A model generated the notes under the pieces. It was not told where the DNA came from. It made no database searches and saw only the letters and a list, made by a program, of their open reading frames with translations. The position numbers and the translations under genes are program-made. This document shows, piece by piece, positions 24,656-64,000 of a stretch of DNA of 64,000 nt (position 1 is the stretch's first letter; each line of letters starts with the position of its first letter). Source of the DNA: a virus (taxonomy: Duplodnaviria; Caudoviricetes); IMG/VR virus record IMGVR_UViG_3300028832_000004, positions 1 to 64,000 of that record. The stretch is one strand, 5' to 3'.

Positions 24656-25369
24656 TTATTTATTTTTTTCGGAAGGACTCCAGTAATACTTATGTTGCTG
24701 GAGCTGACAAACGAAATTGCCGTCCGGGTGCGCCAACACGAACTCCGGAATACGATTCATAGTGACCTTACCGAAACTCGGACTGATATAAATCGGTACG
24801 CAATGTGGCAGCCTTTCGCGCAATGCCAATACATCATCGAAGTCATCATCGGCAACCACGCACTTGACAATATCCCATGGCTTCAATAACATAAGATTTC
24901 CCGGGACCATTTTATTGAGCATTTTGGAGCTGGAGCACTTCCAGTCCATAATGAAATGCGTAGATACGGACGCTTCCTGCGAAGTGCGCCATTCCGCCAT
25001 CGCATCCAAAGGCACAGCGCCATTCGTTTCAAAATCAACGTGGAATCCGCTGCCTATAAGCATATTGCCCAGCACCTGCATCCAAGGGACATTTTCGGGG
25101 AGCAGCGGTTCACCGCCGGTAATGGTCACATGATTGATATGGTCACCTGCAAGCTTCACGATGCGCTCATATGCCTCTTCCGGTTGCAATTCAAGCAGAG
25201 GACGGTCATAGTACTTTTCGTACTCGGACATAATCCAACTCTCGCGCGTATCACAATACGAGCATCTCAGATTACACCCATATGTACGGAGGAATATGGT
25301 CGGGCGGCCGGCATGATAGGCCTCGCCGTCAATGGACTTGAAGATATTGATGATTTTGAGTTTGGACAT
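24656..25369 (-). CDS. queE: 7-carboxy-7-deazaguanine synthase (radical SAM)
   Basis: IFKSIDGE, GCNLRCSYCDT, TITGGEP, ETNG, QLQQHK. Confidence 0.92.
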   Translation of the reverse strand: MSKLKIINIFKSIDGEAYHAGRPTIFLRTYGCNLRCSYCDTRESWIMSEYEKYYDRPLLELQPEEAYERIVKLAGDHINHVTITGGEPLLPENVPWMQVLGNMLIGSGFHVDFETNGAVPLDAMAEWRTSQEASVSTHFIMDWKCSSSKMLNKMVPGNLMLLKPWDIVKCVVADDDFDDVLALRERLPHCVPIYISPSFGKVTMNRIPEFVLAHPDGNFVCQLQQHKYYWSPSEKNK

Positions 25370-52833: not shown

Positions 52834-53523
52834 TTATTTGTTCGAGTTCTTGTCCATTAAGGCGAATGCCTCTGTGCGTGCCGCGTCATTCTCCGTGAAG
52901 ATGCCACGCACGCAACTGGTAGTCGTCTTGGAAGTCTGTTCGGAAGCGCCTCGCATCGAGACACAGGAATGGATCCCGCTAATGCGAACGGCAACGGCAA
53001 TGGCGCCGAGCTTTTCCATAATGGCGTCCGCGATGTTTGCCTGCCAGCCTTCCTGAAGATTCAGGCGGCGGCCATACATCTTGACCATACGGACAATCTT
53101 GGAGAGCCCGACCACCTTGTCTTTCGGGATGTAGGCAACATCCACGCGACAATGCATCGGGGCGAGATGATGGACGCAGTTGGACCACGCATCGGTCGAA
53201 ACAACTACAATGCCCTGCTCGTAAAGGGTCGGGGTGGTGTTTGCGTCAAAGTGGCGATTTTCCGCATCATCCGCCATATTCGGACTGTTCACGGGGAACA
53301 TCTTGTTCAAGAAGTCCGCAGGGTTCGTGCGATAACCTTCGGTCATTTCGGTCCACATCTTGCAAACGCGATGAGGAGTTTCTTTGAGATTATCATCCAG
53401 CTCCTCATCCTCGGAGATGCCAAGCATCTTGCGGATGAGATGTTCTACCATCTTTTCGTCTTCGGCACTAAAGATGTTTTTGGTGACGGACACCTGTTCG
53501 GTGATTTCATATTTGCGTTTCAA
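52834..53523 (-). CDS. folE: GTP cyclohydrolase I
   Basis: ETPHRV, SNCVHHL, AYIP..VVGLSKIVR, RRLNLQE, HSCVSMRG; TTG start after AGGAGA. Confidence 0.93.
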   Translation of the reverse strand: MKRKYEITEQVSVTKNIFSAEDEKMVEHLIRKMLGISEDEELDDNLKETPHRVCKMWTEMTEGYRTNPADFLNKMFPVNSPNMADDAENRHFDANTTPTLYEQGIVVVSTDAWSNCVHHLAPMHCRVDVAYIPKDKVVGLSKIVRMVKMYGRRLNLQEGWQANIADAIMEKLGAIAVAVRISGIHSCVSMRGASEQTSKTTTSCVRGIFTENDAARTEAFALMDKNSNK

Positions 53524-53643
53524 AGGGAGTCTCCTATTGTAAGTATACAAATATACGAAAAGCGGCCCCTCCCGAAGGAGGAGCCGGCTCCGTTTGAGTG
53601 ATAGGAACTCTTACTTAGGCAACCGCAACCAATGGGGTATATC

Positions 53644-61503: not shown

Positions 61504-61809
61504 TTATACGGAAGGGTTTTGCCGTTTAGCCACTGCGCTACGGACAGCAGGGCTAAATCTAAGGACCGGAACCAAACGCCGTGGCACCGGGGCTTTGGCC
61601 CCGGTACGCGGATTTCTTGCGGGGCGAGCCTTGCGGCGCTGTACGAAGAATGTGCCGAAGCCACGTATCTCGATGGTCTCGCCCTTTATAAGATGCGCCG
61701 CCATGCTGGACAATAGGCATTCCACCGCCGACTTGACCTGCCCGGCCGGAATATCCGTACGGTAGACAATCGCATCCACTATATCTTTTTTCGTGATGTT
61801 CAGGGTCAT
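61504..61809 (-). CDS. HU/IHF-family DNA-binding protein
   Basis: ITKKDIV..IEIRGFGTF..RKARPARNPRTG. Confidence 0.92.
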   Translation of the reverse strand: MTLNITKKDIVDAIVYRTDIPAGQVKSAVECLLSSMAAHLIKGETIEIRGFGTFFVQRRKARPARNPRTGAKAPVPRRLVPVLRFSPAVRSAVAKRQNPSV

Positions 61810-61820
61810 AGGTACCTCAT

Positions 61821-62372
61821 TTATCCGATTGAGATGGTAGGCACCGTCGAGACGTGTACGCCCTGAAGCGGGCACGCAGTGCACGCATTAAGAGCCGGGG
61901 CGACGGCGCTGCCCACATTAATTACATCCCCGGTAACGGTTACAAGTCCCTTTGCATCAATCTTGGTGCCCATGGCATCATGTACAATCTTCAGGTTGCC
62001 ATCCCCGGTTTCCATCGAAATCATCGAGCCATCCTTCTTGCCGGAAATAATATTCTTCCCGAAACGCATATAGAAATCGGTTGTAAGATCAACCCCATTC
62101 AATTCCTCGGCAAGTCCCAATATATAGGTCTGCATGAAGGTGTCAACCGAAACCACCACCTTATCCCCGATCTCATATGAAAATGACATAGGGGCCAGCT
62201 GGCGGGCGGTGGTGACAAGCTGGCGTTCATTCCCTTCGGAATCCGCATACGTAATTTCGATTGCGTAGTTTGGCCCATCCTCCGTAATCCTGCCAATATA
62301 GCAGGCGCGGCGAGGATCTAAAAACTTATGCAAGGCCCTGAGTCCGAGATCAAACTGCATACATGCCTCCAT
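61821..62372 (-). CDS. baseplate central spike (gpV/gp5-like)
   Basis: N-terminal OB-like YEIGDKVVV..YILG; beta repeats; C-terminal CPLQGVH. Confidence 0.65.
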   Translation of the reverse strand: MEACMQFDLGLRALHKFLDPRRACYIGRITEDGPNYAIEITYADSEGNERQLVTTARQLAPMSFSYEIGDKVVVSVDTFMQTYILGLAEELNGVDLTTDFYMRFGKNIISGKKDGSMISMETGDGNLKIVHDAMGTKIDAKGLVTVTGDVINVGSAVAPALNACTACPLQGVHVSTVPTISIG

Positions 62373-62467: not shown

Positions 62468-62502
62468 AAAAGCGTTCCCGATAATCAATACCGGGAACGC
62501 TT
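62468..62502 (-). terminator. terminator after the queC-PRTase pair
   Basis: AAGCGTTCCCG..CGGGAACGCTT with a T-tract on the minus strand. Confidence 0.7.
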
Positions 62503-62535: not shown

Positions 62536-62937
62536 TTATTGTTTCGGGGGGCTGGCCAATTCCCAAGGGAATTCAAACCATGCCTCCCGATCTTTGTGTA
62601 GCTCCGAAACGAGCAGACCACAGAGATCCGGTTGCGCCTTTGCTCCAGCCTTGGCAACGTCCGTATAAAAAATCGGATTGTATTTCTTATACGCGAGCAA
62701 GGTATTGCCGGTATCGCAAATGTCATCCACGATAAGGCAGCCCGGGCGCGGTTCGGTCAGGTATTCGACCTTCAAAAGATGGGAGAAGAGGACGGCAAGG
62801 CAGACGCCGCCGCGAGGGATTCCATATACACCATTTATGAAGCGATTGGACTTCACAAATTCCTTCGCGGCGGTACCTGCGGAGAGGATCACGTCCTCCC
62901 ATGTTCTATGCACAATTCTAGGCTGATTATTTTTCAT
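62536..62937 (-). CDS. type I phosphoribosyltransferase (Gpt/XGPRT-like)
   Basis: YGIPRGG, PRPP loop LIVDDICDTGNTL, WFEFPWE. Confidence 0.88.
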   Translation of the reverse strand: MKNNQPRIVHRTWEDVILSAGTAAKEFVKSNRFINGVYGIPRGGVCLAVLFSHLLKVEYLTEPRPGCLIVDDICDTGNTLLAYKKYNPIFYTDVAKAGAKAQPDLCGLLVSELHKDREAWFEFPWELASPPKQ

Positions 62938-63628
62938 AAGGAACCGGATACTCCACACCGTTGGCCTTGAATGCTGCAATGGCGTCGACGCAAGTGCCGC
63001 ACTTCCCGCATGCCTTTTCGCCTCCGCGATAGCATGACCACGTAAGTTCATACGGTACCTTTAGGCGCAGGCCCTCTTTTACGACGCCTGCCTTATTTAG
63101 CTTAATAAGCGGACGCCAAACGTGAATGTTTCCATATGTGCCGATTGAGATGGCCTTATCCATGGCCTCGGCGAATGGTTCCGAACAATCGGCATACGCT
63201 TGCCCGGCGGCATCGTCCGCATGTGCGCCATAAACAACCACGGCCTTCTGTTTTGGGAACAGCGAGTCCGCATACGCCGTGGCGATGGCCAAAAGCAAGC
63301 CGTTGCGGAACGGAACGTAAGTGCCAACGCGGCCTTCGCCATTTTCGGCAATCTGTTCGGCGTACGACTTATCCGGAATTTCAAGCTTGGAATCCTTCAT
63401 TAGCGAGCACACGTCGCCAGCATACTTCATCACGCACGAGATGTCTTCCTCGATGTGGCGGACGCCGTAATGCTCGGCGACCTTCTTGGCGCACAGCAAT
63501 TCCTTGTCGTGGCGCTGCCCGTAGTAGAGCGTGGCGGTGACAACATTTTCCTTGCCATACTTTTCAATGGCGAGGGCAACGCAGGTGGTGGAATCGACCC
63601 CACCGGAATTCAAAACCAATGCCTTCAT
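62927..63628 (-). CDS. queC: 7-cyano-7-deazaguanine synthase
   Basis: SGGVDST, YGQRH, YVPFRN, YADC, TWSCY, CGKCGTC. Confidence 0.95.
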   Translation of the reverse strand: MKALVLNSGGVDSTTCVALAIEKYGKENVVTATLYYGQRHDKELLCAKKVAEHYGVRHIEEDISCVMKYAGDVCSLMKDSKLEIPDKSYAEQIAENGEGRVGTYVPFRNGLLLAIATAYADSLFPKQKAVVVYGAHADDAAGQAYADCSEPFAEAMDKAISIGTYGNIHVWRPLIKLNKAGVVKEGLRLKVPYELTWSCYRGGEKACGKCGTCVDAIAAFKANGVEYPVPYEK

Positions 63629-63717
63629 ATTTGTCCTTTGATTAAATGATGCGGCCCGGCGTTATTGGGAGCGCAAAATCTCTTAGGGGCCGCCGCCACC
63701 TAATATACGAAATCGCT

Positions 63718-63821
63718 ACAAAAAGGGGAATTTTTACAAAACCAGGGTGTCTTTTTCAGTAGATTAATGTATATTTATATCATAAGGGTCCGGGTAGGGT
63801 CCAAATCAAAGGAAGAACATC
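63718..63821 (+). promoter_or_regulatory. repeated promoter/stem-loop/RBS cassette, copy 5 (divergent)
   Basis: GTGTCT-N17-TATATT, GGTCC-GGGTA-GGGTC, AATCAAAGGAAG. Confidence 0.7.
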
Positions 63822-64000
63822 ATGGCTGAAATTACATACGAAAACGTCGAATCTTTCTACGGCACGGCCTTTTACGGCAAATCCTCCGGGGATACCATTA
63901 ATATCATCGGCAAGGCAAAAACATCGAATGGCGAGGAGGTTATCCTGCTTGACAATCGCCGCTTTGTCACGGTCAAGGGCTTCAACATGCAGTATATGCC
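63822..64000 (+). CDS. hypothetical early protein (partial)
   Basis: MAEITYENVESF.. open to the window end. Confidence 0.6.
   Translation, partial: MAEITYENVESFYGTAFYGKSSGDTINIIGKAKTSNGEEVILLDNRRFVTVKGFNMQYM

Follow-up and report, generated by a model that had tools for sequence, protein, structure and literature searches.

The queC-PRTase Locus

We analyzed a stretch of 64,000 nucleotides (hereafter the window) from a virus of the class Caudoviricetes, IMG/VR record IMGVR_UViG_3300028832_000004. The phage genome is complete (127,987 bp, with direct terminal repeats), and the window covers its first half. Two genes of this stretch are considered here: queC, for 7-cyano-7-deazaguanine (preQ0) synthase, and a small gene behind it whose predicted product is a minimal 6-oxopurine phosphoribosyltransferase (PRTase) of the Gpt type, also called xanthine-guanine phosphoribosyltransferase (XGPRT). 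This PRTase most likely acts as a helper of the phage 7-deazaguanine DNA-modification pathway. The positions of the features are listed in Table 1.

The two genes overlap. The ATG of the PRTase gene is at 62937 and the stop codon of queC at 62927-62929, and reading of the shared stretch, ATGAAAAATAA, confirmed the overlap of 11 nt given by the original prediction. By its arrangement, this overlap is expected to couple the translation of both genes. The start at 62937 was preferred over an upstream ATG at 63051 because it is where homologues of 129-133 aa also have their start. It had also been proposed that the pair has a promoter and a terminator of its own. The terminator is present, with a clear stem and T-run, and for the promoter no sigma-70-type site was detected when the divergent intergenic region (63629-63821) was scanned; inspection by eye upstream of queC did not reveal a Bacteroidota-type TAnnTTTG motif either. 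A promoter for queC and the PRTase gene is implied, because the upstream gene (plus strand, from 63822) is transcribed away from queC and a hairpin sits 3' of dpdA in this phage.

The pair forms a two-gene unit here because an insertion of 1.35 kb (genome 63629-65008) splits dpdA from queC. This insertion, placed exactly at the dpdA-queC junction, was seen in this phage only and has no counterpart in the relative L010. It carries two ORFan genes on the strand opposite to queC (187 and 174 aa, the second at 64398-64922), with no Pfam or PHROG match for either. In the closest relatives (L010 and L011, with PRTases 81% and 59% identical) the genes for ParB, DpdA, QueC, and PRTase are contiguous, and in L010 only 24 nt lie between the end of dpdA and queC. 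The description as a separate two-gene unit is thus valid for this phage, owing to the insertion, and in its relatives the pair belongs to a ParB-DpdA-QueC-PRTase operon. Two genes downstream of the pair there is a gene for a DNA-binding protein of the HU/IHF type (61504-61884, minus strand; PF00216, 2.4e-22), and in phage phiST a "DNA binding protein" (PF00216) is likewise found near the PRTase.

Identity, Fold, and Active Site of the PRTase

Taken alone, the PRTase scored 24.7 bits with PF00156, under the cut-off of 26.3, which some of its homologues do pass, and its best NCBIfam match was a partial one (XGPRT NF006613, 32.3 bits against a cut-off of 138). We gathered 48 relatives of 115-143 aa from a large protein collection and built a profile from 30 of them. 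This profile matched the purine PRTase of P. horikoshii (PDB 1vdm; 2.8e-20), the GpT enzymes of Sulfolobus, and the XGPRT of E. coli (6e-11), each match being formed by two blocks with about 33 reference residues missing in between. The AlphaFold (AF2) model of the PRTase had a pLDDT of 93.6 and found the XGPRTs of E. coli and Yersinia as its best Foldseek matches, with TM values of 0.74-0.76; hhalign aligned the PRTase with E. coli Gpt at 98.6% probability. The predicted assignment is therefore weak by the single sequence but firm by the family profile and the modeled fold.

By alignment with E. coli Gpt, the residues expected to contact the substrates are apparently intact. The pyrophosphate loop is retained (R37-G38-G39 of Gpt correspond to R42-G43-G44), as is the motif for phosphoribosyl pyrophosphate (PRPP), in which D88, D89, D92, T93, and G94 of Gpt correspond to D71, D72, D75, T76, and G77, invariant in the 30 family members. 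Likewise, K115 aligns to K96, W134 to W120, and P138-W139-D140 to P124-W125-E126. We take D92 to be the equivalent of the aspartate contacting the purine N7, K115 to contact O6, and W134 to stack on the base. The same fold is found in E. coli Gpt (PDB 1A95, 1A97, and 4JIT) and in archaeal PRTases (1VDM; S. solfataricus GpT 4Z1O and 4TRB), which share with the phage protein the N-terminal VTW strand, the RGG loop, the DD..DTG motif, the O6 lysine, the stacking tryptophan, and a C-terminal PW[ED]. In comparison with E. coli Gpt, however, the phage PRTase is shorter (133 against 152 aa), falls below the curated cut-offs, and is encoded within que/dpdA operons instead of as a housekeeping gene. 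Residues 57-79 of Gpt (about 22 aa; about 53-85 of 1vdm) have no counterpart in it, and this hairpin gap is common to the whole family, cellular members included. The phage protein thus looks like a stripped-down Gpt-type enzyme. As a separate observation, one metagenomic homologue of 366 aa (P0050) has the PRTase domain followed by NUMOD4 and HNH_3 homing-endonuclease domains in the same open reading frame.

The missing hairpin presumably carries the flexible catalytic loop (loop II) of XGPRT and of hypoxanthine-guanine phosphoribosyltransferase. We considered whether its loss could be an adaptation to deazaguanine and rejected this idea, as stand-alone relatives in Brachyspira, the candidate phyla radiation (CPR), and DPANN archaea are also without it. 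The family-wide absence of loop II could as well be expected in a protein that has the PRTase fold and is not an enzyme; its ligand would be a guanine nucleotide, PRPP, or (p)ppGpp, and it would serve to tune FolE or the pathway. Regulators of this fold include PyrR and PurR, a ppGpp-bound PRTase-fold protein (PDB 5vog) was among the structural neighbours, and the physical fusion to FolE in many phages, described below, would suit such a role. Against it, 115 diverse members show little or no variation in any of the acidic residues that bind PRPP and Mg, in the pyrophosphate loop, and in the base-stacking Trp, as is typical of an active site that functions, and the gene stands alone in the reduced genomes of CPR and DPANN, where no canonical Hpt was seen. 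A regulatory role is, in our opinion, very unlikely.

Linkage to the 7-Deazaguanine Genes across Phages

In the scan of IMG/VR, relatives of the PRTase were found on 323 viral contigs. The context was counted in the best 80 loci, with a gene taken as a neighbour when it lay within 10 kb of the PRTase. In these viral loci FolE was present in 71, QueD in 62, QueE in 52, QueC in 46, and DpdA3 in 18. After dereplication at 90% PRTase identity 53 groups remained; one or more que genes were present in 49 of them, three or all four in 41, and a DpdA-type gene in 36. As a cellular control 80 bacterial and archaeal loci were used, and FolE was found in 7 of them, all resembling phage-derived contigs of metagenome-assembled genomes (MAGs) (Fisher p = 1.7e-26). 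The linkage between PRTase and pathway is real, general, and far beyond chance.

Five architectures were seen in which the PRTase gene is a member of the que operon: ParB-DpdA-QueC-PRT-QueD-QueE-FolE (1); QueD-QueE-x-QueC-FolE-PRT-(TGT-like)-HD (2), where TGT is tRNA-guanine transglycosylase; DpdA3-x-QueC-QueE-FolE-PRT-x-(dCTP deaminase-like) (3); QueD-QueE-PRT-FolE-cupin-MazG-DpdA3-QueF, the type of Flavobacterium phage immuto (4); and QueF-QueC-QueD-PRT-QueE-FolE (5). Its commonest immediate neighbour was FolE, with 26 adjacencies, followed by QueD (10), QueC (9), and QueE (8). Twenty recurrent neighbour clusters comprised replication proteins, DpdA types, deaminases, MazG, HD, cupin, and glycosyltransferase; neither GMP reductase nor UbiD was among these twenty. 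Two further genes recur in DpdA3-type clusters with the PRTase (L040:13766-15043, L066:11135-11611, and related loci), one for a GlcNAc-type glycosyltransferase (PF11397) and one for a mannose-6-phosphate-isomerase-like cupin, which hints at further sugar decoration of the base.

This distribution bears on another candidate role, general purine salvage, in which an ordinary guanine, hypoxanthine, or xanthine PRTase would make more GTP available out of whatever purine is free, such as that of degraded host RNA and DNA. The pathway burns one GTP per modified base, and no particular tie to DpdA would be needed. The evidence of fold and residues is the same for this role as for the salvage of guanine released by DpdA, and close relatives are encoded by stand-alone genes in cells and in a few phages that have no que genes (L034, L059, and L089). 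In phiST the PRTase adjoins RNase H and ribonucleotide reductase (RNR), away from the que genes. General salvage predicts, however, a scatter among nucleotide-metabolism genes, and what was observed is the que linkage in 49/53 lineages together with the fusion to FolE; moreover, phages with other pathways that are hungry for GTP or nucleotides were not seen to recruit the PRTase. We consider general salvage unlikely.

FolE Fusions and Cultured Phages

The fusions of PRTase and FolE were detected in metagenomes (P0051, 282 aa; P0052, 307 aa) and, among cultured phages, in about 35 records. Their carriers include the Pseudomonas phages NP1, PaMx25, JG054, and Quinobequin and phages of Stenotrophomonas, Xanthomonas, Variovorax, Sphingomonas, and Vibrio. 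The gene order in NP1 (Queuovirinae) is QueE, Gat-QueC, QueD, the PRTase-FolE fusion, HNH, DpdA, clamp, and PolB. The fused protein of NP1, a "GTP cyclohydrolase" of 297 aa, retains in its N-domain the motifs PRGG and DDLIDSG, the Lys, and W..FPWE, and it is also without the hairpin.

Complete replacement of G (100%) has been reported for three cultured groups, immuto, phiST-type, and CP220-type phages (10.1101/2023.04.13.536721). All three carry the Gpt-like PRTase, and in immuto, phiST, and CP220 the gene bears the GenBank label "phosphoribosyltransferase". Its presence in these groups fits equally heavy recycling of guanine and a route through nucleotides. The PRTase of the Campylobacter phage CP220 (L179, 163869-164282) lies two genes upstream of a radical-SAM protein of 389 aa, and homologues are present in 15 Campylobacter phage records, CPt10 and CP21 among them.

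The Pathway in the Complete Genome

Outside the window the rest of the genome completes the pathway (Table 1). Judged by profile matches, it is predicted to encode FolE, QueD, QueE, QueC, and two DpdA proteins. The original prediction asked for a check of the full genome for dpdA, and the absence noted earlier turned out to be an artefact of the window end at 64000. PF01702 (TGT) and PF20314 (DUF6610, DpdA4 family) gave no match in the complete genome, and the idea of a phage without DpdA was dropped when a search with the DpdA of immuto and the PHROG profiles revealed the two genes. Searches of this genome for MazG, HD, RNR (class I/II or III), and guanylate kinase genes found none.

Table 1: Features of the queC-PRTase locus and of the 7-deazaguanine pathway in the phage genome. 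Positions marked "genome" are those of the complete genome.
Feature	Position	Strand	Support or remark
QueE	24656..25369	minus	PF04055 2e-14; phrog_2076 QueE-like 8e-37
folE, GTP cyclohydrolase I, pathway entry enzyme	52834..53550	minus	PF01227 2.1e-48
Intrinsic terminator 3' of PRTase gene	62470..62502	minus	14-bp stem, 7 G-C pairs, T-run; 34 nt past PRTase stop
Predicted loop-less Gpt/XGPRT-like type I PRTase, 133 aa (P0001)	62536..62937	minus	phrog_8995 1.7e-10; family profile; fold
Overlap of PRTase start and queC stop, 11 nt	62927..62937	minus	Read from sequence
queC, preQ0 synthase, 233 aa	62927..63628	minus	Pfam QueC E 7.7e-50; TIGR00364 154 bits (cut-off 150); phrog_1550 4e-58
Divergent intergenic region expected to hold the queC-PRTase promoter	63629..63821	.	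None identified
First of two ORFan genes in the 1.35-kb insertion	63822..64000 in window (gene 63822-64385)	plus	Alignment to relative L010
DpdA, phrog_887 "queuine tRNA-ribosyltransferase" type	genome 65009-65773		1.1e-29; 1.4 kb upstream of queC, beyond window edge
ParB-like gene	genome 65785-66399		Adjoins phrog_887-type DpdA
QueD	genome 87553-88521	minus	N-terminal 150 aa of 322-aa protein
DpdA3, 252 aa	genome 124780-125538		32% identity, E 2.4e-31 to immuto DpdA3; phrog_19058 1.6e-33

DpdA is the signature protein of the phage 7-deazaguanine modification system (Cui 2023, PMC10516641), and its presence was followed across the PRTase-bearing phages. A phrog_887 or phrog_19058 gene was found in 23/30 records. 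Of the genomes with a completeness of 90% or more it was found in 8/9, and near the PRTase of the remaining one there are no que genes. In the QueF-type contigs lacking a nearby DpdA, the gene was located elsewhere in the genome in 5/5. In genomes with que genes and PRTase, DpdA is thus present wherever completeness permits testing. As further observations, both close relatives (G032 and G033) also have two DpdA-family genes, the phrog_887 type by a ParB-like gene and DpdA3; two transglycosylases per phage could serve two different bases or two sequence contexts. The QueD protein has a C-terminal extension of 170 aa with just faint UBA/TAP-C-like matches.

Stand-Alone Relatives and Specificity

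Relatives of the PRTase also occur as stand-alone genes in cells. They are chromosomal in many Brachyspira species (L133-L163), beside a canonical Hpt, and they were also found in CPR and DPANN MAGs (L101, L109, L112, L119, and others) that show no canonical Hpt. No que genes lie near the stand-alone PRTases in the Brachyspira, CPR, and DPANN genomes. The proposal that the small PRTase is the sole purine salvage enzyme of its carrier cells is false for Brachyspira, where the canonical Hpt is present, and possible for the CPR and DPANN MAGs.

A comparison of que-linked with stand-alone cellular PRTases found no specificity-determining position, the catalytic and base-contact residues being equally conserved in both. 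In the phylogenetic tree, which was built on 136 columns and is poorly resolved, 13 changes between the que-linked and stand-alone states were counted against 38.7 expected on shuffling, and at least 3 of them are forced by well-supported branches. The stand-alone clades of CPR, DPANN, and spirochaetes nest among the phage clades, so that the contexts are clustered yet interleaved. The candidate explanation in which the que-linked PRTases form one specialized clade with an active-site signature of its own is unsupported by this interleaved tree and by the lack of a specificity position.

Proposed Role of the PRTase

Two hypotheses had been put forward for the pair in the original prediction: that the PRTase makes a preQ0 nucleotide to be incorporated by the phage PolA (the first), or that it salvages guanine to GTP for FolE (the second). 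The check proposed there, the co-occurrence of PRTase, que genes, and dpdA across phages, proved very strong, and neither hypothesis is refuted by it. The second is best fitted by the Gpt-like residues, by FolE as neighbour and fusion partner, and by the constant DpdA, and we give it about an even chance of being correct.

In the salvage of guanine, the cycle would run as follows. DpdA would put the 7-deazaguanine base into DNA and expel one free guanine per site; the PRTase would couple this guanine with PRPP to give GMP; host kinases would convert GMP to GTP, and FolE would spend the GTP on the next deazaguanine, closing the loop. By analogy with tRNA-guanine transglycosylase, free guanine that is left to accumulate might be a competitor of the deazaguanine base for the exchange, and the PRTase would remove it. 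The purine substrate could equally stem from the breakdown of host nucleic acids.

Several observations favour this reading. Four of them speak for a canonical 6-oxopurine substrate and so for the salvage of guanine: the base-contact residues of Gpt are kept, including the Asp expected to contact N7, an atom which the 7-deazapurines do not have; no position separates the que-linked from the stand-alone enzymes; DpdA accompanies the PRTase wherever this can be tested; and genes for MazG, HD, RNR, and guanylate kinase are missing from this phage. The chemistry points the same way. The pathway yields no purine by-product other than guanine, which is released once per exchange, and every deazaguanine made consumes one GTP, with the consumer, FolE, as the preferred neighbour and fusion partner.

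The same observations weigh on the role that the first hypothesis shares with the enzymes TubE and ToyH of Streptomyces, that of a 7-deazaguanine PRTase. Such an enzyme would join preQ0, 7-carboxy-7-deazaguanine (CDG), 7-amido-7-deazaguanine (ADG), or 7-aminomethyl-7-deazaguanine (preQ1) with PRPP to give a ribonucleotide, host kinases and reductase would make the dNTP, and the phage polymerase would incorporate it, before replication and beside or ahead of DpdA. There is a precedent, in that TubE has been proven to be a CDG:PRPP transferase and a corresponding role with preQ0 is proposed for ToyH; the genes of both lie beside homologues of FolE, QueD, and QueE (PMC6112128). The PRTase gene is, by its overlap, probably coupled in translation to QueC, which makes preQ0, and the adjacency of the two occurs in at least 9 lineages. 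In some cluster types the PRTase also has neighbours such as MazG, HD-domain, dCTP-deaminase/dUTPase-like, and thymidylate-kinase-like genes and a gene for a DNA polymerase. Complete replacement is reached in DpdA3 phages, the PRTase is present in all three groups with 100% replacement, and the ADG nucleoside has been reported in infected cells (10.1101/2023.04.13.536721). A dedicated 7-deazaguanine:PRPP transferase would open a route through the nucleotide pool and explain the 100% replacement in DpdA3-type phages, leaving DpdA as a finishing or repair enzyme, a scheme we regard as doubtful though conceivable. Against it are DpdA in every testable complete genome with que genes and PRTase, and two of them in this phage; the lack in this genome of the MazG, HD, RNR, and guanylate kinase genes; the invariance of an Asp that, as in Gpt, would serve a purine N7 missing from the 7-deaza base; the lack of any residue that separates que-linked enzymes from the stand-alone ones of Brachyspira, CPR, and DPANN; and the fact that the commonest neighbour and fusion partner, FolE, is the first enzyme of the pathway rather than the last. 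Taking both sides into account, a 7-deazaguanine PRTase, and with it the first hypothesis, is possible but on the unlikely side.

Other points weigh against the salvage of guanine released by DpdA. We know of no characterized member of the loop-less family, and to our knowledge no enzyme of this family has been assayed to date, hence the substrate is only predicted. With the flexible catalytic loop apparently missing, a normal turnover is not assured. K96 varies in the family, being R, H, or S in some members, and the N7-contacting Asp could be kept for other reasons. Hosts usually own an Hpt or a Gpt. From GMP to the GTP used by FolE there are two kinase steps, and the fusion joins enzymes which are not consecutive. 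In cultured phages the PRTase domain is present in about 45 records and QueE in about 269, the groups infecting E. coli and Mycobacterium being without PRTase; the PRTase is therefore non-essential to the deazaguanine pathway. Finally, TubE is an example of a PF00156 enzyme able to use a 7-deazaguanine (PMC6112128).

Relation to Known Systems and Meaning

The nearest parallel to this gene context is in the tubercidin (TubE) and toyocamycin (ToyH) clusters of Streptomyces, in which, as in the phages, a PF00156 enzyme is encoded beside homologues of FolE, QueD, and QueE, and also of QueC (PMC6112128). TubE has 194 aa and belongs to a secondary-metabolite cluster that also encodes a GMP-reductase-like protein, a UbiD decarboxylase, and a Nudix hydrolase but lacks an enzyme for insertion into nucleic acid (10.64898/2026.04.15.718813). 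In the phage clusters, in contrast, DpdA is always present and these tailoring enzymes are not among the recurrent neighbours, the comparison being one of gene context and description.

With respect to the described phage 7-deazaguanine systems, formed by FolE, QueD, QueE, and QueC with DpdA1-4 (PMC6884629, PMC10516641), this phage has all the synthesis genes and DpdA. The phages immuto, phiST, and CP220, studied in those same works, also carry the PRTase. The term "phosphoribosyl" appears nowhere in the main text of PMC5699537 (Hutinet 2016), of PMC6884629 (Hutinet 2019), and of PMC10516641 and its preprint (Cui 2023), and a literature search whose scope did not include Crippen et al. 2019 found no paper joining the topics of PRTase and deazaguanine phages. 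The PRTase, fused to FolE in the NP1-type Queuovirinae, is an unexplained fifth component of the described phage system.

The 7-deazaguanines in phage DNA are a major anti-restriction strategy, and the pathway has been regarded as solved, with four synthesis enzymes and the insertion by DpdA. The recurrence of a fifth enzyme across hundreds of phage contigs, together with its fusion to FolE in familiar phages of Pseudomonas, Vibrio, and Stenotrophomonas, suggests that a step is missing from the textbook scheme. If the PRTase makes deazaguanine nucleotides, it would provide the missing explanation of the complete replacement of guanine. If the recycling of guanine is true, heavy base exchange would need the removal of its product and a closed purine loop, and the PRTase would offer a handle to raise the modification in engineered systems.

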